A stretch of DNA of 63,702 nucleotides, the filler included, from Anaerolineae bacterium (GTDB lineage: Bacteria > Chloroflexota > Anaerolineae > B4-G1 > DUEL01), in assembly GCA_041082215.1 (NCBI GenBank). It is 6 parts of 6 records of this genome, joined end to end, with 100 filler letters (N's around TTAATTAATTAA, not from the genome) between each part and the next. Parts side by side here need not be neighbours in the genome. Positions count along the whole stretch, not along the records: positions 1 to 5,898 come from JBDOIF010000115.1; positions 5,999 to 25,112 come from JBDOIF010000137.1; 4 more parts are not named here. The stretch is one strand, 5' to 3'. The notes below the pieces were generated by a model, which worked only from the letters and a program-made list of their open reading frames with translations, was not told where the DNA came from and made no database searches. Below, piece after piece: positions 1 through 63,702 of the stretch. The number at the start of each line of letters is the position of its first letter. The stretch's first letter is position 1. The position numbers and the translations under genes are program-made.

Positions 1-61
1 AGACACCAGCCCGCCGGGCCACATCGGCGATCGTCGCCCGTTTGGTTACCGCACCATGCAT
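1..61 (-). CDS. LacI-family transcriptional regulator, 5' fragment (runs off window start)
   Basis: My translation from ATG at 61: MHGAVTKRATIADVARRAGV(S), the LacI HTH signature; not in the ORF track. Confidence 0.85.
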   Translation of the reverse strand, partial: MHGAVTKRATIADVARRAGV

Positions 62-98
62 CGAGCGGACCCCCCAGGGGAGAACGGGAACAGGGTTC

Positions 99-140
99 TG
101 AAAGCGCTTTCATTATAGCAGATGAAAAAACTACTGTCAA
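99..140 (-). promoter_or_regulatory. sigma70 promoter with LacI/cre-type operator
   Basis: TTGACA(140-135)-17 nt-TATAAT(117-112); perfect palindrome TGAAAGCGCTTTCA at 99-112 over the expected start site. Confidence 0.85.
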
Positions 141-147
141 GCCAGAC

Positions 148-221
148 ATTCGGGCCATTCGTGGGATTCGCGATCCACCGGCGGGCGAGAGGGCCACTCG
201 CCCCGAAATTGAAATGTGCCC
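148..221 (-). mobile_element. Truncated MITE copy (left ~74 bp, reversed)
   Basis: Reverse complement of the left part of the element at 12964-13155. Confidence 0.85.
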
Positions 222-244
222 AGGATGGGGATTTTCGAATCCTC

Positions 245-919
245 TCAAATGATCCCCAGCTCCCCGGTCAGCGGAATCGGTTCTTTGCAGAGAAAGCCCT
301 CCCCATAGGCCGCCGTGATCATCATCCCATAATACCGGGCGACGATCTCCACGGCGAAAAGGATGGGGGTGTATTGAGAGCCGTGGGCCTGAAGGGCCTT
401 CTGCTTCACCCCATAGACGTCGGTGATATCGAGGACAAAGCTCGGACGACAGACCCGCTGGAAAGAGAGGGGAAAAGTGAGGTGAGCAGGCCTGGGGATC
501 AGCGGCTCAAACTCCGGGAACAGAGCTGGCCGCGAAGCAAGGTAAATCGCTCTCTCCACCAGGCGTGCCGTCGCCTCGTGGTCAGGATGATGGTCATCGA
601 AGTGGGGGGAGAGAACCAGGCGAGGGTGCAGCTCTTTCAGCTCTCGAACAATCCGAAGGGTCGTCTCATAGTCAAACTCCAGCCGGGCATCCGGCAGGTC
701 CAGCATACGGAACACGTCCACGCCCAGGACCTCCGCTGCGACGCGGGCCTCCGCCGCCCGCGTCTCCCGGTCCCCGAAAGTCCCCATCTCCCCCTGCGTC
801 AGCACCAGAATGCCGGTCCGCAAACCCCGCGCCCTGGCCTTCAGGAGAAGACCTGCACAACCTACTTCTGCATCGTCGGGATGAGCTCCAATAGCGAGAA
901 TGTCAACGGCCATCATCAC
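245..919 (-). CDS. bshB1: PIG-L/LmbE deacetylase, BshB1-like
   Basis: AHPDDAE, LTQGEMGT, DHHPDH and AHGSQ motifs; specific substrate is inferred. Confidence 0.7.
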   Translation of the reverse strand: MMMAVDILAIGAHPDDAEVGCAGLLLKARARGLRTGILVLTQGEMGTFGDRETRAAEARVAAEVLGVDVFRMLDLPDARLEFDYETTLRIVRELKELHPRLVLSPHFDDHHPDHEATARLVERAIYLASRPALFPEFEPLIPRPAHLTFPLSFQRVCRPSFVLDITDVYGVKQKALQAHGSQYTPILFAVEIVARYYGMMITAAYGEGFLCKEPIPLTGELGII

Positions 920-949
920 CGCTCCAGAAGAGGGGTATTCAGGTTTCGA

Positions 950-1549
950 CTATACTGCCTTGACTGCAGAGCCACAGTAGGGACACTCGGCCGTGTCGGG
1001 GCTATGCCACTCCAGCTCGTCGGGCAGAAGAGGCCCCCCACAGGAAGGACACTTGCCTGGCAATGCCCCCAGCCTCCCCTCACGGGCACGGGCGAAGCGG
1101 ATGGCCATCTCCCGACGGCTGGTACCCACCCTTTCGAGAGCCTCTTCCAGCCTCCTCTCCACCTCCTCGGCCTCTGCTACATACCCTTGCTTTCGTAGCG
1201 TATCTGCTACCCGCTCCGCAGCGGCTATAACCCGCTCCGGGAGGGGACGGTCGGCCAGTCCCTTCAAAGCCTGCAGTGAGTCGTCCACCGCCCTGCGGCC
1301 CTCGCCTCCCAGCGCCTCGGTGTAAGCAGCCTCCAGCAGCAACCCCGCTGCCCGCAGAGGCATCCCTCTACGGGCCGCGTTCTGAGCCAGCCGGTGGAAG
1401 ATGCTGGCTGCCTGGACAGTATCCCCATTTTCCAGGGCCTGATGGGCCCGGATCAGCGCCTCCCGCACTCCTGGCTCAACCGTGCCAGGAGGCAGCCCAC
1501 CCAGCGGGGGAGGCCCAAACGGTCGCAACGGTCGTCGCCTACGAAACAT
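950..1549 (-). CDS. Hypothetical helical protein with C-terminal zinc ribbon
   Basis: CPSCGG...CPYCGS; overlaps the trmI stop, operonic. Confidence 0.75.
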   Translation of the reverse strand: MFRRRRPLRPFGPPPLGGLPPGTVEPGVREALIRAHQALENGDTVQAASIFHRLAQNAARRGMPLRAAGLLLEAAYTEALGGEGRRAVDDSLQALKGLADRPLPERVIAAAERVADTLRKQGYVAEAEEVERRLEEALERVGTSRREMAIRFARAREGRLGALPGKCPSCGGPLLPDELEWHSPDTAECPYCGSAVKAV

Positions 1550-2372
1550 CTCCTTCCTCCATCCTTCTTGCGTCTTCTTCCCCCTCCGCCACCAGCGACC
1601 GGGCGAAGATCAGATAGCCGGTGTGCGCCACCATCCGGTCCGCCGGACGGAACCGGGCTGCAACCGTCTTGTAGGGGCGAAGCAGGATCTCCTCCACCTC
1701 TGGAAGGCCAAAGGGCGTCTCTTCCAGGGCCGCCAGCAGTTGAGCGACCTGGTTGGCGGTCGGCAAGATGGCCCCCAGGTATCCGCCGTTGACCAGCGCA
1801 GCGTGGGCCTGTTCCAGATAGTCCCACGGCGCGGGCACATCCAGGAAGAGGGCGTCCACCTCCCGCTCGTCGAACCCCTCGCCGATGTCCTTCAATTTGA
1901 ACTCCACGATCTCCGCCAGCCCGGCTCGCTCCAGGTTCCGCCGGGCCATCTGCTGCATCTCTGGACGGACCTCGTAGGAGTAGACCCGCCCATCTGGCCG
2001 CACCGCGTGGGCAAGCACCAGCGTCATCCCGCCACTGCCCGTGCCCGCCTCGATCACCCGACTGCCAGGGCCGATGTTCATTTTAAGAAGGACGTAGCCC
2101 GCCTCTTTGGGATAGACGATCTGGGTGATCCGACGCACCTGGAGAGCGAGGTCGTGGATAGAGGGAGTCAGGAGGAGATAGGGCTGGCCGAGGTGGGTGA
2201 CAACCCGGCTACCCCATGGGCGGCCGATCAGGTCGTCGTGGGCCAGAATCCCGTGATGGGTCTGAAGGGTCTGCCCGGGCGTCAGGCGGACGATCCGCCA
2301 TCGCCGCCTGGCGTCCACCACCATAGCCAGGTCGCCAGCCTGAGCACACCGTTGTTTCCCGGGAAGCGCCAT
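1539..2372 (-). CDS. trmI: tRNA (adenine-58-N1)-methyltransferase
   Basis: RITQIVYPKE, IEAGTGSG, LFLDVPAPW, MVAHTGYL motifs; start placed at ATG 2372, 9 nt after a TATAAT. Confidence 0.9.
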   Translation of the reverse strand: MALPGKQRCAQAGDLAMVVDARRRWRIVRLTPGQTLQTHHGILAHDDLIGRPWGSRVVTHLGQPYLLLTPSIHDLALQVRRITQIVYPKEAGYVLLKMNIGPGSRVIEAGTGSGGMTLVLAHAVRPDGRVYSYEVRPEMQQMARRNLERAGLAEIVEFKLKDIGEGFDEREVDALFLDVPAPWDYLEQAHAALVNGGYLGAILPTANQVAQLLAALEETPFGLPEVEEILLRPYKTVAARFRPADRMVAHTGYLIFARSLVAEGEEDARRMEEGDVS

Positions 2373-2381
2373 AGCGGTAGG

Positions 2382-2410
2382 ATTATAGCCCACTCAAGGC
2401 CAGCCTGCAA
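2382..2410 (-). promoter_or_regulatory. sigma70 promoter for trmI (probably near-leaderless)
   Basis: TTGCAG(2410-2405)-17 nt-TATAAT(2387-2382). Confidence 0.6.
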
Positions 2411-2426
2411 CCTTCAGCCCACCTTG

Positions 2427-2532
2427 GGGCGTATTTCAATTTCGGGCGGTATTCGTTTCCATTCGCGCCATTCGTGCTTCCCCAGGTCCGGCCCAGGCCA
2501 GGGACATCCCGCCCCCAGACTGAAATACACCT
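2427..2532 (+). mobile_element. MITE, internally deleted 106-bp copy
   Basis: Both termini retained (GGGCGTATTTCAATT...ACTGAAATACACCT); perfect 9-bp target duplication CCCACCTTG at 2418-2426 and 2533-2541. Confidence 0.92.
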
Positions 2533-2538
2533 CCCACC

Positions 2539-2567
2539 TTGTAAACCGCTTCACCCTGCGGTATAAT
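2539..2567 (+). promoter_or_regulatory. sigma70 promoter for the glycosylation cluster
   Basis: TTGTAA-17 nt-TATAAT; RBS-like GGAG before ATG 2597. Confidence 0.65.
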
Positions 2568-2596
2568 CCCCCCGACTCTAGCGACAGGAGCAGGCT

Positions 2597-3538
2597 ATGC
2601 GGATCCTGATCACGGGCGGAGCCGGTTTTATCGGCTCCCATCTCTGCGACCGCCTCCTGGCCGAAGGCCATGAAGTGATTGCGATGGACAACCTGAGCAC
2701 CGGCAGCGTGGAAAACATCGCCCACCTGGCCGGCCACGACCGTTTCCTGTTCATCAAGCACGACGTCACCAACTACATCTACATCCCCGGCCCACTGGAC
2801 GCGGTGCTCCACCTGGCCAGCCTTCCCAGTCCGGTGGATTACCTGAACTACCCCATTCAGACCCTCAAGGTGGGGGCCCTGGGCACGCACAAGACGCTGG
2901 GGCTTGCTCTGGAAAAGAAAGCCCGCTATCTCCTGGCCTCCACCTCCGAGGTGTACGGCGACCCGCTGGTCCATCCCCAGCCAGAGGATTACTGGGGCAA
3001 CGTCAACCCGGTCGGCCCACGGGGGGTCTACGACGAGAGCAAGCGGTTCGCCGAGGCGCTGACGATGGCCTACCACCGCTACCACGGGCTGGATACCCGG
3101 ATCGCCCGCATCTTCAACACCTACGGCCCCCGGATGCGGGCGGACGACGGGCGGGTGGTGCCCAACTTCATCTGCCAGGCACTGCGGGGCGAACCCCTTA
3201 CCGTCTACGATGAAGGCTCCCGCACCCGCAGCTTCTGCTACGTTGACGACCTGGTGGAAGGGATGCTGCGCCTCCTCTTCTCGGACGAAATCCGTCCGGT
3301 CAACCTGGGCAACCCGCAGGAGATGACCATCCTGGAGTTCGCCCACAAGGTACTGGAAGTGACGGGCAGCTCTTCCAAGATTGTCTTCATCCACCCCACC
3401 GACGAACGGACAAAGGACGACCCCAAGGTCCGTTGCCCCGACATCACCCGCGCCCGCCAGGTACTGGGATGGGAGCCGAGGGTCCCTCTTGAGGAAGGTC
3501 TCCGGCAAACGGCCGCCTACTTTCGGGAGCGTCTGTGA
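2597..3538 (+). CDS. UDP-glucuronate decarboxylase (extended SDR)
   Basis: [43 protein letters not shown]. Confidence 0.92.
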
Positions 3539-5040
3539 ACCGTAGAGAGACCACCCACCTGCTGGCCTGGAACGCTCCCCTCTCTGCCGGACTGGGGCTG
3601 GCTCTGGCCCTGGCCGGAGGGCTGCTGCTGATCCGACTTTCCCCCACAGCAGCGGCGGTGCTGATGGGGCTTGCGGCGCTGGCAGCAGCAACTCTGATCG
3701 AGCCGTTGACGGGCCTCCTCGGCGGCCTCTTCCTCGGCCTTCTGCGCGCATACCTCCAGGCGGAGGTCCCTCAGATCCCCGCCCAGATCGGCCACCTCTA
3801 CATCGCCCTGGCAGCAGGGGCCTGGCTTGCCCGCGGGCTGGCCCGACGTGAGCTGAGGATACCCGCCAGGAAGGAGGCGGTGCCGCCGCTGCTTGGGCTT
3901 CTTGGCTTCATCGCCGCGGCCTGGCTCTCGCTGTGGGAGCCAGCGGACCTGGCCGGATACGGCCTTCCGGAACTGGTCAAATGGGTGGAAATCCTGCTGG
4001 TCCTGCTCCTGGCGGTCGAGCGGGCCTCCCCCCGTCAACTCCCCTGGCTGACGGCGGGGGTGCTCCTGGTGGGCCTCTTCCAGGCCGGAGTGGGCCTCTA
4101 CCAGTTCGGGCTGCGCGGCGAGGGGCCGGAGCACTTCCTGATCCCCGGCACCGATTTCTATCGGGCCTACGGCACCTTCGAACAGCCCAATCCCTACGCT
4201 GGCTATATCGGAATGACGCTGGCGGTAGCGGTGGGGGTGATGGCGGGAGGGAGAGACGTGGGGACGCGGGGACACGGGGACACGGGCGATCTCCCCATCT
4301 CCATGCCCCTGTGTCTCCGCGTCCTCCTGCCGGTTGTCGCGCTTGCCCTGGCGGGGGGACTGGTCGCCTCCTGGAGCCGGGGGGCGTGGATCGGTTTCGG
4401 GGCAGCGCTGGCGGTGATGGCAGTTGCTCTGCCCCGCCGGAGCCGGTGGGGATTGTTGCTGGTGGGAGCGCTGGCAGCCGTTGCCCTGGCCCTCTATGTG
4501 TCCGGGCTGCTCCCCCCTGCCATCGTCGTCCGCCTCACCGATTTCGCTGCAGGCCTGCGGCTGGAGGACGTGCGGGGGGTGGGGATCAACGATGCCAACT
4601 ACGCCGTGATCGAACGGCTGGCCCACTGGCAGGCTGCGCTGGAGATGTGGCGGGCCAACTTCTGGACCGGGGCGGGGTTGGGTTGCTACGAGCCAGCCTA
4701 TCCTCGCTACGCTCTCATCAACTGGCCCAACGCCCTGGGGCATGCCCACAACATCTACCTCAACCTGCTGGCAGAGACGGGGTTGATCGGCCTGATGGCC
4801 TATCTCGCCTTCTGGTCCATCCTCTTCTGGCAGACCTGGCAGGCGACCCGTTGCCTTTCGGGCCTCCCCCGCGGGCTGGCCCTCGGCCTTCTGGGAGCCT
4901 GGACCCACCTCGCCGTCCACAACTTCTTCGACAACCTCTACGTCAACAACGCCCACCTCCTCATCGGCCTCCTCATCGGCCTCCTCCCAGCCACCCAATC
5001 ACCCAATCACCCAATTACCCAATTACCCAATGACCAATGA
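3535..5040 (+). CDS. O-antigen ligase (Wzy_C)-family membrane protein
   Basis: Multi-[38 protein letters not shown]. Confidence 0.88.
4993..5040 (+). repeat. Octamer tandem repeat (ACCCAATH x5 plus a partial unit)
   Basis: ACCCAATC x2, ACCCAATT x2, ACCCAATG, ACCAATGA; contains the ligase stop and the gtrA start. Confidence 0.85.
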
Positions 5041-5495
5041 ACCGTAAGGAACTCACCCGCTTCATCAAATTCTCTATCGTCGGCACCATCGGCGCGGTAG
5101 TGGATTTCGGAACGCTGTATCTGTTGCATGTGGTGGCAGGGCTGCCGATCGTCCTGGCAAACACCTGCTCTTTCACTGCCGCGGTGCTCAGCAATTTCAC
5201 CTGGAACCGGCTCTGGACCTACCCCGACTCCCGCTCCAAGCCGATCCGGACCCAGCTCCTCCAGTTCTTCGTCGTCAACGCAGCCGGATGGGGGATCAAC
5301 ACCGGCATCCTGGTCCTGCTGCGTTATCCCTGCGTGTCCCTGGTGACCCAACTGACCGGCTGGGCGTCGCTGACACTGGGGGCGGAGCTTCTCTACAAAC
5401 TGGGCTACAACCTGGCCAAAGCAGTCGCCACCGGCGTCGTCCTTTTCTGGAACTTTTTCGTCAACCGGTACTGGACCTATTCGGATGTGACCTGA
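5037..5495 (+). CDS. GtrA-family protein
   Basis: RFIKFSIVG, NFTWNRLWTY, WNFFVNRYWTY; about 4 TM helices. Confidence 0.9.
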   Translation: MNRKELTRFIKFSIVGTIGAVVDFGTLYLLHVVAGLPIVLANTCSFTAAVLSNFTWNRLWTYPDSRSKPIRTQLLQFFVVNAAGWGINTGILVLLRYPCVSLVTQLTGWASLTLGAELLYKLGYNLAKAVATGVVLFWNFFVNRYWTYSDVT

Positions 5496-5898
5496 TGCGG
5501 GTCGGCATTGATTACACAGCCGCGGTGCGGCAACAGGCGGGGATCGGACGGTACACACGGGAGCTGGTCAGTGCACTCCTGGCCCTGCCCAACCCCCATC
5601 GGTACATCCTCTTCGCCGCGACCGGCCGCCGGCAAACGGCCACACGTCATACGTCATACGTACGTCATACGTCATACGTCAGTAACAGCCAGCGACCGGC
5701 CACTGGCTGCCAGTTGCGTACCATCCCGCTCACGGATGACTGGCTCGCCCGCATCTGGCACCGCCTTCGCCTCCCCATCCCCGTCGAGGTGGTCATCGGG
5801 CGGGTAGACCTCTTTTATTCCCCTGACTTCGTCCTCCCTCCCACCCTGCCCCGCACCCACACCCTCCTTACTGTCCACGACCTTTCGTTTCTCCACTA
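5495..5898 (+). CDS. Glycosyltransferase family 4, N-terminal part (cut by gap)
   Basis: MRVGID..., GIGRYTRELV, DLFYSPDFVLPP, LTVHDLSF. Confidence 0.85.
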
Positions 5899-5998
5899 NN
5901 NNNNNNNNNNNNNNNNNNNNNNNNNNNNNNNNNNNNNNNNNNTTAATTAATTAANNNNNNNNNNNNNNNNNNNNNNNNNNNNNNNNNNNNNNNNNNNN
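5899..5998. other. Artificial contig linker (same at 25113-25212, 41559-41658, 61390-61489, 62531-62630)
   Basis: 100-nt N runs with central TTAATTAATTAA (stops in all frames). Confidence 0.97.
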
Positions 5999-6383
5999 GA
6001 TTGAAACCGCAGCAGACGTGACGTCCGTCCACGCAGAACCGTTTGTGGTCCAAACGCCCAGAATCCCGACTGAGGGATTGAAACATTCGTCTGTTGTCAT
6101 CTATGATAAAGCTGCCGAGCAGGTCCAAACGCCCAGAATCCCGACTGAGGGATTGAAACACCTGCCCGCAAGCAAGAACATCGCTGAGGATTTCCAAGTC
6201 CAAACGCCCAGAATCCCGACTGAGGGATTGAAACACCTTCAGCGATTCAATCCCCGCCTCTACAAGGCCCGGTCCAAACGCCCAGAATCCCGACTGAGGG
6301 ATTGAAACACAGAGGATGGCCGGATCGTCCCCGAGGAGAGCTCCGGGTCCAAACGCCCAGAATCCCGACTGAGGGATAGGGAA
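5999..6383 (+). CRISPR. CRISPR array, trailer end: 37-bp repeat GTCCAAACGCCCAGAATCCCGACTGAGGGATTGAAAC, 5 spacers visible
   Basis: Partial repeat 5999-6007; identical repeats 6048-6084, 6123-6159, 6198-6234, 6272-6308; degenerate terminal repeat 6347-6383; spacers 40, 38, 38, 37, 38 nt; stem AATCCC/GGGATT and 3' ATTGAAAC typical of Cas6-processed class 1 repeats. Confidence 0.98.
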
Positions 6384-6468
6384 AACAAAAGTGCCTAGGA
6401 AAACAGTCCGGGGCACTACTGTTTCTTCTGCCTGTGTGAATCCATGTCCTCCTTAGAAACGCTTTCGC

Positions 6469-6497
6469 TTGACGGAATGGCAAATCGGGTTTATTCT
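6469..6497 (+). promoter_or_regulatory. sigma70-like promoter pointing into the tRNA-Gln fragment
   Basis: TTGACG-17 nt-TATTCT. Confidence 0.55.
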
Positions 6498-6517
6498 TAA
6501 AGTTGCGGCACGGCCAG

Positions 6518-6566
6518 ACAGACTTTGGATCCGTGATTCGCAGGTTCGAATCCTGCCGCCCCAGCC
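6518..6566 (+). pseudogene. 3' half of tRNA-Gln(TTG); probable att site
   Basis: Anticodon loop CTTTGGA, T arm GCAGG-TTCGAAT-CCTGC, 3' acceptor CGCCCCA-G-CC; no 5' acceptor strand (TGGGGCG) or D arm upstream. Confidence 0.8.
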
Positions 6567-6601
6567 TGGGGTTATTCTGTTGTGCTACCTCTAAAGAGAC
6601 G

Positions 6602-7960
6602 ATGAGATATCCGGTCGAACCGGCGGACTCCTCCTCCGTCTGTATGCGAAGTGTGGCGGCAGCGCTCCGGGGCGCTTTCCTGGACCCCTTCCAGATTCCT
6701 CCTGTCCAGCGGTGGGGCCTCTCCCTGATGGCCCCTCTCGGCCCCGAGGCGGTCCGGCGGGCGGTGGGATGGGGAGTCCGGTTTCGGGGCACTGCACCGG
6801 CCTGGGCGGACCGGATCACGGCTGATGGATTGGCCCGCTGGGCTGTCTCTCTATACGCTGGCCTGCAAGGCCCCTTCGATGCTGTCCTCCTCGGTGCCCC
6901 CAACGGCGGCGTGGCCCATCTGGCCGCGGCTCTCGGAGTCCCCTTCCTTTCCCAGCACTTCCTCATCAGCTTCCGCGACCCCACCGACCCCGACGACATC
7001 CGCACCTACTTCGACCACGGCACAGCCCTGGCCCGCCGTATCCTCCAGCGGGAGCCGATGGTGGCGGTGATCAACCACTACGATCCTCTCCACGATCGGT
7101 ATCTGGTCCGGTGGGTCAACCATATCCGCCTCAAGCTGCTCGATCTGCCGGAGGCGTACCGGACCTTTATCCAGGAGCGGCTCCGACCCGGCGGCACGCT
7201 GATCTTCACGGATTGCCGGTACTCCTGGCTCCAGTATCGGGTGGGGCCACGCCACACCTTCCAGGTGGGAGGACTGGGGGATGTGGCCGACCGGGAGTTC
7301 CTGGAGGGGAGGCCGGAGATCGAAGCCGTGCGCGGAGCACCAGGCGGGTGGAGATTGGAGGGCATGCCCTTAGAAGAGCGGCCCGAGTCGGAATGGGGGG
7401 CAGAGCCGCCACTGCGGGAGGTGGTGGAGACCTTCGCCCATGCCCACGGCTACCGGTTCGTCGCCCTGGAGGGGGATCATCCGGAAGGGTACGCCCGGCT
7501 GGCGCTGGAGGCCCACCGATGGCTGAGTGAAGTGGAAGGACGGAACCCCCAGGGAACGCTGGTCGAGGTGTTCACCCAGACCAATCCGACCGCCCCTCTG
7601 GCCTCGCGGCTTCTCCCCCTCTGGCTGCCCTTCAACTGCACCGACAGCCTCCGCTTCCTGCAACAGATGCGGGGGGAGTTGCCCGCCGACAGGCCGGTGC
7701 TCCTCACCCCCCTTTCCAATTTCGTCCAAACCTTCGATACGGCAGGATGGGAGGCTTATCAGGAGGCACTGACGGGGATGGACCTGCGGGTGCTGGGGGT
7801 GCGGGAGCGGCTGTTCCCTTCCGATCCGGCGGGGCTGTGGAAGCCAGCGCGGATGCTCTCCCGCTGGTGTGCAAAACACCCGGACCCGGTCCGGGTGCGG
7901 CTGGATGCGGCTCAGCTCAGGCTCCTCGGGCAGGACTCGAACCTGCAACCAACCGGTTAA
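6602..7960 (+). CDS. Hypothetical protein (~452 aa)
   Basis: Long ORF with host-like codon usage; LLGAPNGGVAHLAAALG motif; start uncertain; 3' end overlaps tRNA-Asn on the opposite strand. Confidence 0.75.
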   Translation: MRYPVEPADSSSVCMRSVAAALRGAFLDPFQIPPVQRWGLSLMAPLGPEAVRRAVGWGVRFRGTAPAWADRITADGLARWAVSLYAGLQGPFDAVLLGAPNGGVAHLAAALGVPFLSQHFLISFRDPTDPDDIRTYFDHGTALARRILQREPMVAVINHYDPLHDRYLVRWVNHIRLKLLDLPEAYRTFIQERLRPGGTLIFTDCRYSWLQYRVGPRHTFQVGGLGDVADREFLEGRPEIEAVRGAPGGWRLEGMPLEERPESEWGAEPPLREVVETFAHAHGYRFVALEGDHPEGYARLALEAHRWLSEVEGRNPQGTLVEVFTQTNPTAPLASRLLPLWLPFNCTDSLRFLQQMRGELPADRPVLLTPLSNFVQTFDTAGWEAYQEALTGMDLRVLGVRERLFPSDPAGLWKPARMLSRWCAKHPDPVRVRLDAAQLRLLGQDSNLQPTG

Positions 7961-7994
7961 CAGCCGGCCGCTCTACCTGTTGAGCTACCGAGGA
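7922..7994 (-). tRNA. tRNA-Asn(GTT)
   Basis: TCCTCGG/CCGAGGA acceptor stem, GCTC-AACAGGTA-GAGC D arm, CCGG-CTGTTAA-CCGG anticodon arm, GCAGG-TTCGAGT-CCTGC T arm; CCA not fully encoded. Confidence 0.97.
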
Positions 7995-8008
7995 TCGCTT
8001 GCGCTCAC

Positions 8009-8037
8009 ATTATACCTCGAACCCCGACACACGTCAA
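8009..8037 (-). promoter_or_regulatory. tRNA-Asn promoter
   Basis: TTGACG(8037-8032)-17 nt-TATAAT(8014-8009). Confidence 0.85.
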
Positions 8038-8053
8038 GCACCTTTCAGAACGC

Positions 8054-8245
8054 GGGCGTATTTCAATTTCGGGGCGAGTGGTCCTCTCGCCCGCCGGTGG
8101 ATCGCGAATCCCACGGATGGCTCGAATACGGCGAACAGGAGGGATACCTGCTCCATTCGCGGTATTCGTTTCCATTCGCGCCATTCGAGTTTCCCCAGGT
8201 CCGGTCCGGCCCAGGGACATCTCGCCCCCAAACGGAAATACACCT
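8054..8245 (+). mobile_element. MITE, full-length 192 bp
   Basis: ~25-bp imperfect TIRs; flanks TCAGAACGC / TTAGAACGC (9-bp TSD, 1 mismatch); near-identical to 12964-13155. Confidence 0.92.
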
Positions 8246-8384
8246 TTAGAACGCTGAGGGCGCTGAGGACCGGAGGATTTTCTGCGCCTCTGTGCCCTCC
8301 GTGTCTCTGAGGTCCTTCTTTTGAACGGGAATGGCGCGAATGGGGAGGAGTGATGCAACTGGTCGGGGCAGCAGGGGAGGAGAG

Positions 8385-10862
8385 GTGCGAAAGCGGCTCC
8401 TTCTAGCTGTTGTATTGACCCTCCTGATGCTTGGCACAGGAGCGGGAGGGACCTTTTTTCGCAAACTGGTAGTCGCTCTTCCTTCCCCTGATACGCTCTA
8501 TGAACACCAGACCGGCGCCTCCGCCCGCATCCTTGACCGGCATGGCCGTCTCCTCTACGAGATCGCCGACCCCCACGTGGGCCGCCACTTCCCGATCCCC
8601 TTGCAGGAAATCCCTCTCCCCTGCCGACAGGCTACCATAGCTACAGAGGATGCCAGCTTCTATGCCAACCCCGGCGTGGATGTGATGGGCATCCTCCGCG
8701 CCGTCTGGATCAACCTGCGGGGCGGAGAGGTGCTGGCCGGAGGTTCCACCATCACCCAGCAACTGGCCCGCAACCTCCTCCTGACCCCTCAGGAGCGGGG
8801 CGAGCGGACCCTGCTCCGCAAGCTGCGGGAGTCCATCCTCGCCTGGCGCATCGCCCGCACCTACTCCAAAGACGAGGTGCTGGCCCTCTACCTCAACGAG
8901 GTGTACTACGGCAACCTGGCCTACGGGATCGAGGCCGCAGCCCGCGCCTATTTCGGTAAGGGGGTGGCGGAGCTGGACCTGGCGGAATGTGCCCTGCTGG
9001 CCGGACTCCCCCAGTCCCCCGCCACCTACGATCCTCTCAGCGACCTCGAGGCAGCGCGGAAGCGGCAAAGGACGGTCCTCCGCCTGATGGTTGAGCAGGG
9101 GTATATCACCGAGGAACAGGCCCGACTCGCCGCTCAGGAGCGGCTCCATTTCGCCGCCACTCCTTTCCCCATCGAAGCACCCCACTTTGTCATGTTCGTC
9201 CGCGCCTGGCTGGAGGAGACCTTCGGCCTGGAAGCGCTCTACACCGAGGGGCTGGTGGTGACGACCACCCTGGACCTGGACCTTCAGCATACGGCGGAGC
9301 GGGTGGTGCGTCGCCACCTGGCCCGGCTGTCCCGGGCCACAGAGGGCAGCCCACTGCACGACGTGAACAACGCGGCACTGGTGGCCCTCACCCCCTACAG
9401 GGGGGAGATTCTGGCGATGGTGGGTAGCCCCGATTATTTCGACCCGGTCATTGACGGGGCGGTCAACGCGGCGCTGGCGCTTCGCCAGCCGGGGTCGGCC
9501 ATCAAGCCGATCGTCTATGCCGCTGCCTTCGACCCACGCCGCGACACTCCCCTCACCCCCGCCTCGGTCCTCCTGGACGTGCGGACCGTCTTCCCCACCC
9601 GGGAGGGACGCCCCTACGTGCCGACGAACTATGACCGTCGCTTCCACGGCCCTGTCTCGGCGCGGGAAGCCCTGGCCTGTTCTTACAACGTCCCGGCCGT
9701 CCGCGTCCTTCAGGAGGTGGGGGTGGAGCAGATGGTCACCCTGGCCCACGACCTGGGACTCTCCAGCTTCGGCGGAGGGGGACGGTTTGGCCTGGCGCTG
9801 GCGCTGGGGGGTGGGGAGGTGCGGCTGCTGGAGCTGACCGGCGCCTATGGGGCCTTCGCCAGCGGCGGCCGACGGGTAGATCCGGTGGCGGTGCTGGAGG
9901 TGCGGGACGCGGCCGGAAAGCTACGTTACCGCGCCCCCTCCGGCCCCGGTCCCCAGGTGATGGACCCCCGGGTTGCCTATCTGATCACCGACATCCTCTC
10001 CGACAACGAGGCCCGCGCCCCCGCTTTCGGCCCGGCCAGTGTGCTGGCCCTCTCCCGCCCGGCGGCGGCCAAGACCGGCACCACCTCCGACTGGCGGGAT
10101 AACTGGACGGTGGGATACACGCCGCAGCTTGTGGTGGGGGTGTGGGCCGGCAACGCCGACGGGAGGCCCATGGTCTACGTTTCCGGCATAGAAGGGGCAG
10201 GCCCCATCTGGCACGATTTTATGGAGGCGGCCCTGCGGGGCCAACCGGCGCTCTCCTTCCCCGAGCCGCCGGGCCTGGAGCGGGTGCGGGTCTGCCTCCC
10301 CTCCGGCCTCCTTCCCACTCCCTACTGCCCCCGGACCCGGGCGGAGCTCTTCATCGCCGGCACGGCCCCCACCCGGCCCGACGACTGGTACCGTCCGGTG
10401 CGGACCGACGCGGCGACGGGACTGCCCGCCGGAGCGGATACCCCGCCGGAGCGGATAGTGGAGCGGGTTTACATCTTTCCCCCGCCAGAGGCATGGGAAT
10501 GGGCGCGGGAACAGGACTGGCCCCTGGGGCCGGTGTCCCAAAGCCGCCCGCCGACCGGAGGGCAACCGGAGGCCGGAGGACTTGTCCTCACCTCGCCGGA
10601 CCCTGGCTCCATTTACCGGCTGTCTCCGGTCGTCCCGGCCCCGTATCAGTCCGTCCGTGTGGCGGCCCGTCCGACCGGAGAGGTAGCGGTGGCGCAGGTC
10701 GCTTTGTACGTAGACGGGGAGTTGCTGGCGAGCTTCCAGGCTCCACCTTTTGAGACGTTCTGGCAACTGGTGCCCGGAGAGCACGTCTTTCTGGCGGAGG
10801 GGGTGGATGAGGAAGGCCGCCCCCTTCGGAGCAGCCCGGTCACTGTTTACGTCTACCAGTAG
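8385..10862 (+). CDS. pbpC: Class A penicillin-binding protein (PBP1C/1A-like)
   Basis: Transglycosylase TEDASFY, GGSTITQQLARN, RKLRE; transpeptidase SAIK, SYN, KTGT; C-terminal Ig-like domain; GTG start after GGAGG. Confidence 0.85.
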   Translation: MRKRLLLAVVLTLLMLGTGAGGTFFRKLVVALPSPDTLYEHQTGASARILDRHGRLLYEIADPHVGRHFPIPLQEIPLPCRQATIATEDASFYANPGVDVMGILRAVWINLRGGEVLAGGSTITQQLARNLLLTPQERGERTLLRKLRESILAWRIARTYSKDEVLALYLNEVYYGNLAYGIEAAARAYFGKGVAELDLAECALLAGLPQSPATYDPLSDLEAARKRQRTVLRLMVEQGYITEEQARLAAQERLHFAATPFPIEAPHFVMFVRAWLEETFGLEALYTEGLVVTTTLDLDLQHTAERVVRRHLARLSRATEGSPLHDVNNAALVALTPYRGEILAMVGSPDYFDPVIDGAVNAALALRQPGSAIKPIVYAAAFDPRRDTPLTPASVLLDVRTVFPTREGRPYVPTNYDRRFHGPVSAREALACSYNVPAVRVLQEVGVEQMVTLAHDLGLSSFGGGGRFGLALALGGGEVRLLELTGAYGAFASGGRRVDPVAVLEVRDAAGKLRYRAPSGPGPQVMDPRVAYLITDILSDNEARAPAFGPASVLALSRPAAAKTGTTSDWRDNWTVGYTPQLVVGVWAGNADGRPMVYVSGIEGAGPIWHDFMEAALRGQPALSFPEPPGLERVRVCLPSGLLPTPYCPRTRAELFIAGTAPTRPDDWYRPVRTDAATGLPAGADTPPERIVERVYIFPPPEAWEWAREQDWPLGPVSQSRPPTGGQPEAGGLVLTSPDPGSIYRLSPVVPAPYQSVRVAARPTGEVAVAQVALYVDGELLASFQAPPFETFWQLVPGEHVFLAEGVDEEGRPLRSSPVTVYVYQ

Positions 10863-10885
10863 GACAACTCGCAAGAGTTATCCTG

Positions 10886-12853
10886 CTATTCCATTGCCGG
10901 AAGCACAAAGGTGAAGACGGAGCCGACGCCCGGCCAGCTCTCCACCCAGATGCGCCCCCCGTGCCGGTCAATGACCGATTTGACAATCGCCAGCCCCAGT
11001 CCCGTTCCTTCCACCTCTTCCGTCTCGGGCGCATGGACCCGGTAGAACCGCTCGAAGATATAGGGCTGATCGGGCAGGGGGATCCCGATGCCGTTGTCGG
11101 CCACGCGGACGACGACGTGGCCGTCGTCCTCCGTCGCTTCTACTGCGATCCATCCTCCTTCCTGGGTGTACTTGATGGCGTTGCTCAGCAGGTTCTCCAC
11201 CGCTTGCCGCAGCCGGCGAGGGTTGCCCCGGATCAGCGGCAGGGGCCGTCGCTCCCAGCGCAGTTCCTGGTTTTTCTCTTTGGCCAGCGGCTGGAACTCT
11301 GTCACGACGGCGTCAATGATCCCTTCCAGGTGGAGCGGCTCCAGCTCCAGATCGTAACCGGCTTCGATCCGCCCCAGGTCCAGGAGGTCGCTGATCAGGT
11401 TGGTGATATGCCGGATGCTATCCCGCACCCGCTCGACGAAGAGCTGTTGCTGTTGGTTCAGCGGTCCTGCCTTCTCCAGAAGGTCCACATATCCCCGGAT
11501 GGTGGTCAGGGGTGTCCGCAGATCGTGGGAGACGGTGAAGACGAATTCCGTCTTGATCCGGTCCAGCTCCTTCAGATGGGTGATATCCTGCATCATCAGG
11601 GCGTAGCCCACCCCTTCCACTGGCGTCAACTGGGCGCTGTAACTCTGGCCGGTGGAGGTGGTCACTTCGGCATGGAGCGTCCGGTCCGCCTTTCGCGCAG
11701 CCTGAAAGAGGTCCCGCAGGACAGGGTGGGAGATCAGCTTGGGGGCCGGGCTGCCGATGGACTCGGTGGAGATCCCCAGCGCCACTCTGGCGGCGGGGTT
11801 ACAGAGGAGGATCCGCAGCTCGGGGTCAAGGATCACCACCGCCTCTTCGGATTCCCGCAGCACGGCCTCCAGTTTCCGCCGTGCCGTCTCGGTTTCCTCA
11901 TAGAGGCGGGCGTTCTCCACTGCGACGGCCGCGTAGTCGGCGAGGGCACAGAGAAGCCGGACGTCGTGGGTGGTGAAGGGGCGTTCCGACTCCCGATTGC
12001 TCACACCCAGGATACCGATAACCCCCCGGTCCGGCACACTCATAGGGGCGTAGACGAGGGAACGGACCAGGTAGCCCGTCACGACCTTGGAGGGGCTGTC
12101 TACCACAAGGAGCGGTTCGCCGCTCTCCACCACCTGACCGGCAAGCGAGTCCTGGACGCGGATGCGAAGACCCCGCGCTTTCTTCTCGTCTACGTTCTTG
12201 GCTGCCCGCAGGACCAGCTCGCCGCTTTCCGGCTCTCTCAGCAGCAGCAATCCCTCCTCGGCCCTGGTGAGAAAGACAGCCGCTTCCACTACACGGGTAA
12301 GGACCACCTCCAGGTCCAGGCGGGAGGTCACCGAGCGGCCGATGGAGTAGAGTGTGTTCAGCTCCTGGATCTGCTGCTGGAGCTGCCGGTTGCTCTCCTC
12401 GAGCTGCTCGACCAGGCGGTCCCGTTCCCGCCGCAGCCGGACCTCTTCCAGGGCCCTTTCGACCGATTGGGCCATCTCCTCCGGCTCGAAGGGTTTGATG
12501 ATGTAGTCCCGCACTCCCAGCCGGAACGCCTGGACGGCCAGCCCCTCAGAGCCGTGGGCCGTCATAAAGATAACGGGGATGGAAAGCCCCCGTTTTCGAA
12601 GTTCACGGAGGAGCTGGATGCCGGTCAGCCCTGGCATCTGTTCATCCAGTATGATCAGGTCGGGTCGCTCCTCCTCTGCCAGGCGCAGCCCTTCTGTCCC
12701 GTCGCTGGCCAGCAACGCGCGGTAGCCAGCCGGCTCGAGGACCATCTCGCGGAGGACGGCCTGAATTTCTGCGCTGTCGTCCACGACCAGAACGCGCTCG
12801 CGTGCCGGAAAGTCCTCTCCGGAGTGCTCAGGGCCTGTAATCTGTGCTTGCAC
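10886..12853 (-). CDS. Hybrid sensor kinase REC-GAF-PAS-HisKA-HATPase
   Basis: VLVVDDS, LIILDEQMPG, SHDLRTPL, NLLSNAIKY, DNGIGI, GTGLGL. Confidence 0.93.
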   Translation of the reverse strand: MQAQITGPEHSGEDFPARERVLVVDDSAEIQAVLREMVLEPAGYRALLASDGTEGLRLAEEERPDLIILDEQMPGLTGIQLLRELRKRGLSIPVIFMTAHGSEGLAVQAFRLGVRDYIIKPFEPEEMAQSVERALEEVRLRRERDRLVEQLEESNRQLQQQIQELNTLYSIGRSVTSRLDLEVVLTRVVEAAVFLTRAEEGLLLLREPESGELVLRAAKNVDEKKARGLRIRVQDSLAGQVVESGEPLLVVDSPSKVVTGYLVRSLVYAPMSVPDRGVIGILGVSNRESERPFTTHDVRLLCALADYAAVAVENARLYEETETARRKLEAVLRESEEAVVILDPELRILLCNPAARVALGISTESIGSPAPKLISHPVLRDLFQAARKADRTLHAEVTTSTGQSYSAQLTPVEGVGYALMMQDITHLKELDRIKTEFVFTVSHDLRTPLTTIRGYVDLLEKAGPLNQQQQLFVERVRDSIRHITNLISDLLDLGRIEAGYDLELEPLHLEGIIDAVVTEFQPLAKEKNQELRWERRPLPLIRGNPRRLRQAVENLLSNAIKYTQEGGWIAVEATEDDGHVVVRVADNGIGIPLPDQPYIFERFYRVHAPETEEVEGTGLGLAIVKSVIDRHGGRIWVESWPGVGSVFTFVLPAME

Positions 12854-12963
12854 CTTGTCCTCTCGGCCAGAGAATCAACGAAGAGGTCCCCCGAAGGGCT
12901 CCCCCAAAACCTGTTCCTGCCCTATATCATAACACAGCTTTTGTATAAAGGGTAGTGCCTTAT

Positions 12964-13155
12964 GGGCGTATTTCAATTTCGGGGCGAGTGGTCCTCTCGC
13001 CCGCCGGTGGATCGCGAATCCCACGAATGGCCCGAATACAGCGAACAGGAGGGATACCTGCTCCATTCGCGGTATTCGTTTCCATTCGCGCCATTCGTGT
13101 TTCCCCAGGTTCGGCCCGGGCCAGGGACATCTCACCCCCAAACTGAAATACACCT
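12964..13155 (+). mobile_element. MITE, full-length 192 bp
   Basis: Flanks GTGCCTTAT / GTGTCTTAT (9-bp TSD, 1 mismatch); same TIRs as the other copies. Confidence 0.92.
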
Positions 13156-13282
13156 GTGTCTTATTCTCAGCGTCCTCGACCTCGAATGAGGGCAGAAACT
13201 TGCACGGAAATCGGTCGCGTGTAAAATGGACCCTGTGTGGAGGCTTCCGGCAGCCGCTTCAACGGCGGATGCCTCCTGAACT

Positions 13283-14596
13283 GTGGAGGAAAATGTGGAA
13301 GAGGAGATTGACCTCCGAAAATATGTCCAGGTGCTAGTTCAATACTGGAAATGGATAACAGGCGCGGCTCTCATTGCGGCCACGGCTGCGCTGGTGGTGA
13401 GCTTCCTGCTTCCCCCCACCTATGAGGCCACGGCTCTGGTGGCGGTGACGAAGCCCCGTTACGTGATGCAGTTCGATCCCCGTTTTGAGACGCTGGATAA
13501 CATCCAGCCGGCATACAAGGCGTATCCAGAGCTGGCCTCCAGCGATGACCTGCTCCGGGATCTGATGGAGCGCCTCGACCCTCTCCCCCGGGGCGTTCAG
13601 ACGCTTCGAGATGTAAAGGAAATGGTGGAAGCAGAGGGGGGAGCGGACCCCAGCATAATTCGCCTGACCGTGCGGGCACGGGACCCGGAGGAGGCGGCCC
13701 GGATCGCCAACGTCTGGGCTGCGTTGTTCGTTGAACGGGCCAATGAGCTTTACGGGACCCACAATGAGGCCGAGCTCCACTTCTTTGAAGAACAGCTACA
13801 GCGGGCAGAGGCCGAGCTTCAGTCGGCGGAACAGGCGCTGATCGAGTTTCAGGCCCGCAATCAGCAGGCGATCCTGGAGGCCCAGCTCTCTTCGGCCCAA
13901 CGGGACCTGGAGGACTATCTGATCGAGCAGCGAGAGCTCGAGCGGGTGGTCCGCAACGCCCGGATGCTACAGGATCGGGTCGCCGATTGGCCAGCGGAAG
14001 CCCAGGCAACTCCGGGCGACGATCTGACGGCACTGCTGCTGGAACTGCGGGCCTTTGACGTCCAGACGTCCAGAGAAGGCTCCGAGGAGGTCGAGCTGGG
14101 CACAGGCTCTTCCATCTGGCTGCAGATCTCTGATGCGACGCTCCTTGCGTCGGGGCGGACGGCCGGCGAGTTGAGGGCCTTTCTGGACGGGCTGGCGACG
14201 ACGCTGGAGGCCAGGTCCGCGGAGATCGAAACTCGCATCGCGGCGCTGGAGCCCCGGATCCTGAGCCTGCAGCAGCAGTTGCAGGAAATGGAGGCCGAGC
14301 GGGATCGGTTGACGCGGGCACGGGATGTAGCCCAGGAGACGTATATGACGCTGGCCCGGAAGGTGGAGGAGACGCGGATCGCTGTGGAAGAAGTCAGCGG
14401 CGAGGTGCGGCTGGCCAGCCAGGCGGCAGCACCCCAAAAACCAGCAGGTCCCAGAAAGCTGCTCAACACCGCCGTGGCGGGGGTGTTAGGGTTGATGCTG
14501 GGGGTGTTGGGAGCCTTTGTCGTCGAATGGTGGCGGCAGGAGCCTCCCACCGAACCCTCAGGCCGGCAGGAAGCCGAACCTGTGGATGAGAGATGA
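13283..14596 (+). CDS. Polysaccharide chain-length determinant (Wzz/GumC family)
   Basis: EEEIDLRKY, N- and C-terminal TM helices, coiled coil, P..P..P motif before the last TM. Confidence 0.85.
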   Translation: MEENVEEEIDLRKYVQVLVQYWKWITGAALIAATAALVVSFLLPPTYEATALVAVTKPRYVMQFDPRFETLDNIQPAYKAYPELASSDDLLRDLMERLDPLPRGVQTLRDVKEMVEAEGGADPSIIRLTVRARDPEEAARIANVWAALFVERANELYGTHNEAELHFFEEQLQRAEAELQSAEQALIEFQARNQQAILEAQLSSAQRDLEDYLIEQRELERVVRNARMLQDRVADWPAEAQATPGDDLTALLLELRAFDVQTSREGSEEVELGTGSSIWLQISDATLLASGRTAGELRAFLDGLATTLEARSAEIETRIAALEPRILSLQQQLQEMEAERDRLTRARDVAQETYMTLARKVEETRIAVEEVSGEVRLASQAAAPQKPAGPRKLLNTAVAGVLGLMLGVLGAFVVEWWRQEPPTEPSGRQEAEPVDER

Positions 14597-15405
14597 ACAA
14601 GGACCCCATCGAGAGGCTTGTAGCGCTCGGTTTTTCTGAGTACGAAGCAAAGGCCTATGTGGCCCTGCTTCGGAAGAGCCCCGTCACCGGTTATGAGCTG
14701 GCCAAGCTCTCCGGCGTCCCCCGCTCGATGATCTACGAGGTCCTGGGCAAGCTCGTGGCCCGTGGAGCGGCGATGACGCTCCATCAGGAGGATAGCGTCA
14801 AGTACGCGCCGGTGCCTGCGGAGACCTTCCTGGAGTTGCTCCATCGCGAACACGAGACCCTCATTACCTCTCTTAAAGCAGACCTTGTTTCCCTTGCGTC
14901 ATCTTCCGACCTGGAATATGTGTGGAACATCGAAGGGTACGATAACATCCTGGCCCGGGCGAAGGAGATGATCAGGAGAGCGGGAAAGTGCATCTATATT
15001 TCCCTGCTTCCCTCCTCCTTCCCTCCCCTCCGCTTCGCCCTGGAAGAGGCTGTTGAGCGCGGCGTGCGCGTCATTGTCTATACGACCCAGGCCCTTGCCT
15101 TCCCGGGCGGGCGGGTAGTCGTTTCTCCCATATCCGAAAAGGCCCTCGGTCAGGCCGGCGGGCTGGGCTTGATCCTGGTGGTGGATGGGGAGGAGGTCCT
15201 CATCGGCGAATGGATCTCCGTCACCCGCGCCCGCGCCTCCTGGACACGCAGCCCTCTCTTCGTCTTCATCGCCGAGCACCACCTCCGGACCGACCTCTAC
15301 CTCCCCCAGGTCCTGGCTTTGCTGGGGGAGCGGGCACGAGAGGTGATCCGGGAAGAGGATTGGGAGCTGTTCGCCCGGGCGATGGAAAGCCACATTGACG
15401 AATAG
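14593..15405 (+). CDS. TrmB-family transcriptional regulator
   Basis: LGFSEYEAKAYVALL, SGVPRSMIYEVL, C-terminal effector domain with VVDGEEVLIG. Confidence 0.9.
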   Translation: MNKDPIERLVALGFSEYEAKAYVALLRKSPVTGYELAKLSGVPRSMIYEVLGKLVARGAAMTLHQEDSVKYAPVPAETFLELLHREHETLITSLKADLVSLASSSDLEYVWNIEGYDNILARAKEMIRRAGKCIYISLLPSSFPPLRFALEEAVERGVRVIVYTTQALAFPGGRVVVSPISEKALGQAGGLGLILVVDGEEVLIGEWISVTRARASWTRSPLFVFIAEHHLRTDLYLPQVLALLGERAREVIREEDWELFARAMESHIDE

Positions 15406-15467
15406 TCCCCCATGGGCTGGCCGGTGGCTGGTCCCTCTCCTGTTTCCCGGTGATCCGGACCTGATGC

Positions 15468-15517
15468 TTGACAGCCGGAAAAATCTGTGTATAATCGTGC
15501 GTAGTTATTATTATAAC
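15468..15517 (+). promoter_or_regulatory. Promoter of the exporter operon with candidate operator
   Basis: TTGACA-16 nt-TATAAT; inverted repeat GTTAT-TATT-ATAAC at 15504-15517. Confidence 0.65.
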
Positions 15518-15653
15518 GTCTATTGAAGGGCCTCCGTCTATCATCGGACCCGGTTGGAGGGCAGTGCCCTGCGGAGGGATTCGCTGGCTACTGCGACGAT
15601 GCCATGCCAGCGCGGTGTCGGTTTCTGCCCGGTGTGGGTGAGGAGATAGCCCT

Positions 15654-62667: not shown

Positions 62668-63702
62668 AGGTGCATTTCAGTTCTATGGCGGGGCATAGAT
62701 TTCTGACCAGATTTGGTCGAAGCGCTGGCTCATCACGGCAGCCCGAACCGGCAGAAGACGCTCTGCGCCGATACGGCTCCAGCGCATCCCCGGGCCGGCA
62801 AAGCGTGCTTTGAATTGTTTGACGCCACTCTCCACCACGCCACTGCCAATGACCCATCCCTCCTCCCGCATCTCCATAATAGTTCATCCGCCGCGCGTTG
62901 TTACGGAAATAACCGGCCTCCCGGCGCAGTTCCTCCGCCTGTTGCGTTCTCCTCTCTGCTTCCCCTTCTAACTCCTGAGCAATCCGAGTGGCATGCCCCT
63001 GATACAGCGTGGTCTCCCGCTGCTGCAGCCAGCGCCGGGCTTCCTCTGTCCCTTCCCCCTTCAAGAGGCCGGCCGCACAGGCCAGGTGCTCCCGGGCGTG
63101 ATCCCAGTCCACTACCTGGCGACTGTCGTAGAAGTGATCCGCCGCCAGATTCCAAATCCAGGCCGCTCCGTCCCCTAATACCTCGGTCTCCAAACTCTCT
63201 TCCCAACCGCGCCGGCCGGCTTCGGCCCACAACCGCTCCCCAAACTCCTCCGGCCCTCCAAGATAGGCCACATAACTCTGCTGCACCGCACGGCCCACTT
63301 CAACCCGCTCCCCGGTTGCTCTATCCACCACCTGCCGCCGCCCCACCTCAAAGACGGTCCCCACCTTCACTTCCTTCCACCCCTCCCCACGAATATGGAT
63401 CATCCCCCCATCCATCGCCACCCCCATCCGTTTCCCCTTCCCCGGCCCACGTCGCTCAGACACCCCCTCCTCAGATGGAAGAGCATTCGCAGCCCGCCAC
63501 TCCGCCTCTTCCCACTGCCGAAATTGCTCCCCTCGCTCCTGCGCCAGACGCCAGGCGGTAGAATCTGAAATGGGAATCTGCCCGACCCTTTCCAACGTCT
63601 CCGCCACCTGCTCATAAGGCATCAGCGCACTCAACCAAACCACTTCCTTCACCACCCCCTCACTCCAGTGTTGATCCCTCAACCCCAGTTGCCGGTCCAG
63701 CG
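62668..63702 (-). mobile_element. ISKra4/UPF0236-type (Mutator-like DDE) insertion sequence, 3' part, frameshifted
   Basis: MDGG, WKEVKVG, LGDGAAWIW, DWDHAREHL, YFRNN..RMNY, then IGSGVVESGVKQ..RF..PGMRW in another frame; stop at 62683-62685; terminal AACTGAAATGCACCT ending at 62668. Confidence 0.9.

Follow-up and report, generated by a model that had tools for sequence, protein, structure and literature searches.

A hairpin MITE placed at a fixed distance upstream of promoters in an Anaerolineae genome

The MITE and its neighbours in the window

The DNA analyzed here, referred to as the window, is a stretch of 63,702 nucleotides from a hot-spring Anaerolineae bacterium (assembly GCA_041082215.1), made up of six contigs of one metagenome-assembled genome (MAG) joined with runs of 100 Ns. 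It carries copies of a short repeat that we describe as a miniature inverted-repeat transposable element (MITE) and that, across this genome, recurs at a set distance upstream of sigma-70-type promoters, well in excess of chance expectation. The unit is 192 nt long and runs from GGGCGTATTTCAATTTCGGGG to CCCCCAAACTGAAATACACCT, with the termini GGGCGTATTTCA... and ...TGAAATACACCT; its left end is marked by GGGCGTA and its right end by ACACCT. Folding of the 192-nt unit yields one long hairpin with an energy of −47.4 kcal/mol (z = −5.2). The element is short and multi-copy, possesses terminal inverted repeats and is flanked by target-site duplications, the features by which MITEs are recognized, and is regarded as non-coding. 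The copies under study are located on contigs C133 (window positions 1-5898) and C134 (5999-25112).

A full-length 192-nt copy with both ends intact (8054..8245, plus strand) lies next to a tRNA-Asn gene (7920-7994, minus strand). Upstream of this gene is a predicted promoter at 8009..8037 (minus strand), composed of the −35 box TTGACG (8032-8037), a 17-nt spacer and the −10 box TATAAT (8009-8014). The copy is bordered by a 9-bp duplication with 1 mismatch, TCAGAACGC at 8045-8053 and TTAGAACGC at 8246-8254. An internally deleted copy of 106 nt (2427..2532, plus strand) retains both ends, lacks approximately positions 21-105 of the 192-nt unit, and is enclosed by a perfect 9-bp duplication, CCCACCTTG, at 2418-2426 and 2533-2541. 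Its left end is 16 nt from the −35 box, and its duplication 7 nt from the −35 box, of the promoter-like site of a TrmI/GCD14 gene (Pfam GCD14, E 2e-34) at 2382..2410 (minus strand; TTGCAG at 2405-2410, 17-nt spacer, TATAAT at 2382-2387). For both copies the distances given in a preliminary description of this DNA, 16 nt to the −35 box and 39 nt to TATAAT with the GGGCGTA end toward the promoter, are exact. Because 9 of the 16 nt are the duplication, the original target in each case lay 7 nt upstream of the −35 box.

On the opposite side of the 106-nt copy, a divergent promoter-like site (2539..2567, plus strand; TTGTAA at 2539-2544, 17-nt spacer, TATAAT at 2562-2567) precedes an epimerase/dehydratase gene (2597-3538; Pfam Epimerase, E 5e-49). 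The −35 box of this site overlaps the right copy of the duplication and is 6 nt from the right end of the MITE, a non-canonical distance. An in-frame ATG of TrmI is found at 2372 (minus strand), 9 nt past the −10 box, and the TrmI mRNA may be leaderless or nearly so.

The second full-length copy, also 192 nt and used as the reference unit (12964..13155, plus strand), is flanked by a 9-bp duplication, GTGCCTTAT at 12955-12963 and GTGTCTTAT at 13156-13164. It has no promoter at the canonical distance, the top score at 14-17 nt from its ends being 8/12, and a partial copy that comprises only the left 74 nt at a contig end (148..221, minus strand) has no promoter-like site. All four copies had been placed beside promoters in the preliminary description; this is too loose a statement, fitting 2427-2532 and 8054-8245 but not the other two at the canonical distance, and the misfit already suspected for the copy at 12964 is real.

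Contigs from public sequencing runs diverge exactly at 12964 and at 13155/13156. Logan contigs from three DNA runs and one RNA run, aligned to 6000-15900, end at the MITE borders; none spans 8054-8245 or 12964-13155, and they yielded no empty or filled allele. The core of the hairpin (13015-13100; element positions 52-134) is built of CGAA[T/C] units, four per arm in 9-nt steps, with CGAA[T/C] at 52, 61, 70 and 79 and its complement at 102, 111, 121 and 130. Conservation along the MITE revealed no clear sparing of the CGAAT units.

Distance to promoters across the genome

MITE loci were collected over the whole genome (3.53 Mb, 174 contigs, 65% G+C) by BLAST followed by end-to-end alignment. 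An end was considered intact with at most 4 mismatches in the terminal 20-mer, and a duplication was accepted with at most 2 mismatches. This gave 99 loci, 77 of them with both ends intact. Full-length copies (69) have a mean identity of 90.5% and a maximum of 98.4%. A duplication of 7-10 bp encloses 64 of the 77 intact copies (9 bp in 43, 8 bp in 18, 10 bp in 2 and 7 bp in 1), and the remaining 13 have none at this tolerance.

Promoter-like sites were defined as TTGACA, a spacer of 16-18 nt and TATAAT with at least 9/12 matches, and were scanned at offsets of 0-84 nt from each element end. The genome background of such sites is 2.7e-4 per position and strand, and 20,000 intergenic positions served as a random control. 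The −35 box of a site lies 14-17 nt from an end in 52/77 intact copies, compared to 0.64% of random intergenic positions (p = 8e-95), an enrichment of approximately 100-fold. The sites are concentrated at offsets of 15-16 nt, where they occur in 49/91 right flanks and 14/82 left flanks. At offset 14 there are 4 right and 2 left hits, at offset 17 there are 1 right and 3 left hits, and every other offset has 0-2. Counted per end, 68/174 ends (39%) have a site at 14-17 nt, by a scoring that differs from that of the PPP software used in a published survey of promoter-targeting transposons (Guerillot et al., 2014; PMC3942029). Pairwise similarity among the 174 flanks never exceeds 60%, which makes the insertion sites independent of one another.

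The same signal emerges when the flanks are profiled without any motif. Beyond the right end, T is found at +17 in 59/91 flanks, TTG.C is apparent at +16 to +21, and an A/T-rich TAnAAT follows at +39 to +45; the profile thus recovers the E. coli-type consensus used for the scan. Beyond GGGCGTA on the left there is just a weak AA at −17 and −18. The preliminary description expected −35 and −10 peaks in an alignment of the left flanks: a fixed distance is indeed enriched genome-wide, the TTG and TAnAAT peaks lie beyond the right end, and the left flanks show only the weak AA.

The arrangement of neighboring genes is what would be expected if these sites were functional promoters. Gene models came from an in-house script combined with ARAGORN tRNAs, by which the genome is 85% coding and 72/77 intact copies are intergenic. 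On the sides that carry a promoter-like site, the next gene is transcribed away from the element in 56/58 cases, compared to 53/95 on other sides (p = 9e-9), and the median distance from element end to gene on promoter sides is 80 nt.

What is recognized at the target

In 38/46 cases, 7 nt separate the duplication from the −35 box, whether the duplication is 8 bp or 9 bp long. The mean −35 offset is 15.66 nt for promoters with a 17-nt spacer (n = 50) and 15.44 nt for those with a 16-nt spacer (n = 18). Since the −35 offset is unaffected by the spacer while the distance to the −10 box shifts, the ruler is anchored at the −35 box. This box by itself is nonetheless insufficient, and a complete promoter is required. 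Each of the TTGAC[AGT] boxes located 14-17 nt from a MITE end (36/36) is accompanied by a −10 box of at least 4/6 matches, as opposed to 32% of the 712 TTGAC[AGT] occurrences between genes and 12.5% of the 2,868 in the genome as a whole. An excess of G directly precedes the −10 box, resembling an extended −10 promoter, and the scan made no selection for it. Because the −10 box is required even though the ruler runs from the −35 box, RNA polymerase holoenzyme bound to the promoter, or the sigma factor within it, is a likelier sensor than the DNA of the hexamer by itself; we consider this guide probable, with considerable room for doubt.

The strongest competing explanation is that the transposase reads the promoter DNA itself, mainly the TTGAC of the −35 box, and has no need of RNA polymerase. 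A distance fixed to the −35 box rather than the −10 box is what such direct reading would produce, and TTG is the strongest signal in the motif-free profile. What it accounts for poorly is the invariable −10 box next to adjacent TTGACx boxes, found with only 32% of intergenic TTGACx, although later selection could mimic part of this difference. Furthermore, −10 boxes at a variable spacing of 16 or 17 nt form the pattern read by sigma, which would be hard for a transposase positioned 7 nt upstream to follow. Direct reading therefore appears unlikely to us, though it deserves to be taken seriously.

Far less can be said for insertion that is random or merely AT-seeking, with selection retaining the harmless intergenic copies. 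Such a process could leave 72 of 77 copies between genes in a genome that is 85% coding by our crude models, but it cannot create a spike at 15-16 nt with 0-2 hits at individual offsets outside 14-17, nor a 100-fold excess over random intergenic positions, and we judge it very improbable.

The constant distance from the element end could also arise if the element carried or created an outward-facing promoter. However, the target duplication sits between the element and the promoter, neither flank positions +1 to +15 nor the spacer is conserved, and the flanks are as dissimilar as stated above. The tRNA-Asn promoter offers a further point of comparison. In 5/6 relatives from other genera it is kept (TTGAC., 16-17 nt spacer, TATAAT), and in these relatives the MITE was not found, or in one case only faintly, with similarity ending just upstream of the −35 box. 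The gene order tRNA-Asn followed by penicillin-binding protein (PBP) is not kept in the relatives, which limits the comparison to the tRNA side. More broadly, MITE DNA was detected in 1/30 other genomes, as stretches of 50-85 nt at 78-80% identity, and no orthologous empty sites were found among them. From the tRNA-Asn comparison, at least one predicted promoter, that of tRNA-Asn, predates the insertion, and an element-borne origin of the promoters is scarcely credible.

Finally, orientation is a bias and not a rule. The promoter is faced by the right (ACACCT) end only in 34 copies, by the left (GGGCGTA) end only in 12, by both ends in 6 and by neither in 25. A strictly oriented insertion with GGGCGTA toward the promoter, as the preliminary description proposed and as holds for the two window copies, is refuted genome-wide, given that 50/91 ACACCT ends and 18/83 GGGCGTA ends face a promoter at 14-17 nt and that the opposite end is favored by approximately 3:1 (34 vs 12, p = 0.0016). 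The six both-sided copies have promoters at 15-16 nt on each side (for example G000:C83:92682-92873 and C7:34548-34738). Each such site was originally a divergent pair whose −35 boxes lay approximately 23 nt from one another; with the MITE in place the separation is approximately 200 bp.

Transposase, proposed mechanism and known systems

A fragment of an ISKra4-family insertion sequence occupies window positions 62669..63700 (minus strand). Its inverted repeat AGGTGCATTTCAGTT starts at 62669, and its transposase gene is truncated by the end of the contig, with the reading frame interrupted near 62877. Pfam returned no match for the transposase pieces in the window; the NCBIfam model NF033572 matched them in two frames (E 1e-46, 162.1 bits, and E 2e-16, 56.4 bits). 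The transposase at G000:C82:656-1657 scores 208.1 bits against NF033572, above the cut-off of 205. On the window transposase the ISLre2 model NF033529 gives 53.8 bits against a cut-off of 200. The nearest transposase relatives belong to Candidatus Thermoflexus sinensis (85% identity), Thermoflexales and Anaerolineae MAGs (Chloroflexota). A Candidatus Thermoflexus sinensis locus (L014) possesses a complete element of 1,443 bp whose ends both carry the inverted repeat of the window fragment, flanked by an 8-bp duplication, as read by eye.

The repeat AGGTGCATTTCAGTTT, found from window position 62669 onward and at both ends of the L014 element, matches the right end of the MITE at 15/16 positions and the left end at 12/16 (counted by eye). 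The better-matching right end is also the one that usually faces the promoter. These results agree with the preliminary description in pairing the MITE with an ISKra4-type transposase in a Chloroflexota host: a transposase of the family is present, and the MITE ends match its inverted repeats. From this likeness we infer that an ISKra4-family transposase mobilizes the MITE. Further copies of the insertion sequence were sought in the same taxonomic family, where matches in 3/25 other genomes are too few for statistics. A metagenome scan used a 15-nt repeat pattern, which is too short, and most of its 80 loci were chance matches from unrelated habitats; a few metagenome ends that resemble GGGTGCATTTCAGTTTnGGGGC do have promoters at 15-16 nt in this short-pattern scan.

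In four diverged ISKra4-family elements the transposase is split at the same place (G000:C82:660-700 and 2085-2110; L014:2490-2545; L150 near 1010). The N-terminal zinc-ribbon part ends after ...SG(L/F)FPP, and the catalytic FPLDxQLGL... resumes in the +1 frame. The split point is a run of T4-6 followed by C5-6, and in a fifth element, L015 (T4C5), the frame is continuous. None of the four split sites is in the window, where the copy begins exactly past the split site, at 63700. The split at CCC-C is a candidate for programmed +1 frameshifting.

Two distinct members of the ISKra4 family stand in tandem at G000:C82:265-3113, 9 nt apart (by eye). One outer end is 15 nt from a TTGACA-N17-TAAGAT site and the other is 16 nt from TTGAAA-N17-TACAAT, both sites pointing outward, and the divergent promoter pair seems to have been hit twice. 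The genome also contains a second MITE family of about 12 copies of approximately 175-200 nt, with a terminal GGGTGCATTTCAGTTT in common with the first and a different interior; none is in the window (examples are G000:C95:28263-28436, C94:18854-19019 and C150:50780-50982). In 7/12 copies the GGTGGCGAGTTACACC end is 14-16 nt from a promoter-like site of at least 9/12, and the other end rarely is.

The phased CGAA[T/C] array of the first MITE is absent from this second family. It is likewise absent from the two related insertion sequences checked, which have only 1-3 scattered single units. The MITE sets its hairpin, array included, at one fixed position (approximately −52) upstream of some 50 promoters, and it might have been co-opted as a set of dispersed operators, or as a transcription insulator, read by a host factor. 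About a tenth of near-consensus promoters carry the MITE (8/56 perfect sites and 20/163 with 11/12 matches). If co-option were true, it would amount to a regulon built by a transposon, but we see it as a long shot.

Other features of the window concern its assembly and local repeats. The partial MITE copy at 148-221 continues into a 147-nt stretch common to three contig ends. Exact 147-nt contig-end overlaps are found at window positions 1-147 and 61243-61389, in common with C121, C100 and C43, and look like assembly-graph branch points at repeats. Two adjoining units of approximately 254 nt with 91% identity form a tandem duplication at 23455-23963.

We arrive at a reading in which an ISKra4-mobilized hairpin MITE has inserted at a fixed distance upstream of complete promoters, to which we assign a probability of roughly 88%. 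The ISKra4-family transposase, a Mutator-like DDE enzyme, would act on the 192-nt hairpin in trans. It would make a staggered cut of 8 or 9 bp in front of a complete sigma-70-type promoter, with the promoter-side edge of the cut 7 nt upstream of the −35 hexamer, and would most likely sense the promoter through bound holoenzyme or sigma. Usually the end with the closest match to the insertion-sequence repeat would be turned toward the promoter. After insertion, 15-16 nt would then separate the element end from the −35 box and 38-39 nt would separate it from the −10 box, with the core promoter left intact, and such insertion sites are presumably harmless.

Several observations weigh against this reading. 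No site of at least 9/12 is found at 14-17 nt in 25/77 intact copies, of which 20 score below 8, and several non-canonical copies have promoter-like sites at offsets of 6, 19 or 24, or a −10 box at 31-33. Either targeting is not absolute or these sites have been altered since insertion. No intact autonomous element with matching ends is assembled in the genome: the copy in the window is cut short and has a broken frame, and all that is present on C150 is a remnant. Contigs of the RNA run gave little cover of 6000-15900 and no transcript ends. Promoter scoring used an E. coli-type consensus, and the gene models are crude. Lastly, purifying selection could contribute to the apparent requirement for a −10 box, although the comparison with intergenic TTGAC[AGT] sites argues otherwise.

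Promoter targeting by transposons of this kind has been described previously. The preliminary description cited TnGBS and ISLre2 of Firmicutes as the precedent, which is correct but incomplete. Guerillot et al. (2014; PMC3942029) showed that insertions of TnGBS and ISLre2 lie 15-17 bp upstream of the −35 boxes of sigma-A promoters and that their right repeat adjoins the promoter. They also report that 13 ISKra4-group elements likewise target promoters, on either side, including ISKra2, 4, 5 and 6 of Ktedonobacter racemifer (Chloroflexi), and that all these elements create 8- or 9-bp duplications. By the criterion in the legend of their Fig. 2, more than 20% of repeat-genome junctions must have a sigma-A promoter at a distance of 13-17 bp, and their Table S1 lists a promoter at 22-38% of junctions for ISKra2, 4, 5 and 6. 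They propose that unequal repeats set orientation and that the transposase contacts the initiation complex. Promoter targeting by ISKra4-type elements is thus already published, and the MITE described here adds a further, well-documented case of a known mechanism.

The closest parallel is the ISKra4 group (p-MULT 4, Mutator-like DDE), with which our element shares the transposase family (NF033572 above the cut-off). The assignment is at the level of the family, above the ISKra4, ISMich2 and ISAzba1 lineages. The Ktedonobacter ends begin with GGGTG or AGGTG, like those of the element here, duplications of 8 or 9 bp are the norm in the group and occur here in 61/77 copies, and promoters are found on either side in both. 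The reported 22-38% of junctions with a promoter in Ktedonobacter and our 39% both exceed the 20% criterion, keeping in mind that the former were scored with PPP and ours were not. The split transposase frame recalls the −1 frameshift described for the ISMich2 group and the 'frameshift' flagged for ISKra4 itself in Table S1. Unlike these insertion sequences of 1.4-1.7 kb, the element here is 192 nt long and non-coding, and its CGAA[T/C] core was missing from the two related insertion sequences compared above. The published elements also insert in both orientations with near-perfect repeats, whereas the MITE has a clear bias of 34 to 12.

TnGBS and ISLre2 (p-MULT 3) resemble the MITE in their spacing of 15-17 bp upstream of the −35 box, their duplications of 8-9 bp and the proposed docking to the initiation complex. 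They differ in transposase family, as the low score of the ISLre2 model indicates, and in their single reported orientation with the right repeat by the promoter, as opposed to the bias seen here (34/12/6). Their hosts are mainly Firmicutes, and TnGBS elements carry conjugation genes. A more distant analogy, drawn in the same paper, is yeast Ty3, which integrates at RNA polymerase III starts via TFIIIB/TFIIIC and so likewise relies on the transcription machinery to reach a harmless location at a set spacing from a promoter. Its enzyme (a retroviral-type integrase), its polymerase and its domain of life are unrelated, and the likeness is one of logic only.

The MITE inverted repeat is not in Table S1 of PMC3942029 (0 matches to three 12-mers), and the word MITE has 0 occurrences in the main text of that paper. 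A search of titles and abstracts, which left subscription journals and ISfinder pages outside its range, found none on MITEs of these families. For a single element in a single genome, 174 independent junctions make an unusually large and clean natural set. A promoter-side cut fixed 7 nt from the −35 box, irrespective of an 8- or 9-bp duplication, sharpens the published model, as does the finding that no −35 box is targeted unless a −10 box accompanies it, which is consistent with a transposase that senses bound holoenzyme. As a third refinement, the moderately unequal repeats of the MITE yield a graded 3:1 bias, halfway between ISLre2 elements, which are oriented, and ISKra4 elements, which are not. 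In practice, each MITE copy also marks a likely promoter, which may be of use in annotation. Compared to the systems described so far, the present case adds a non-coding derivative, a repeat outside Table S1, a much larger sample of a single element, the 7-nt rule, the need for a −10 box and a graded bias in orientation.

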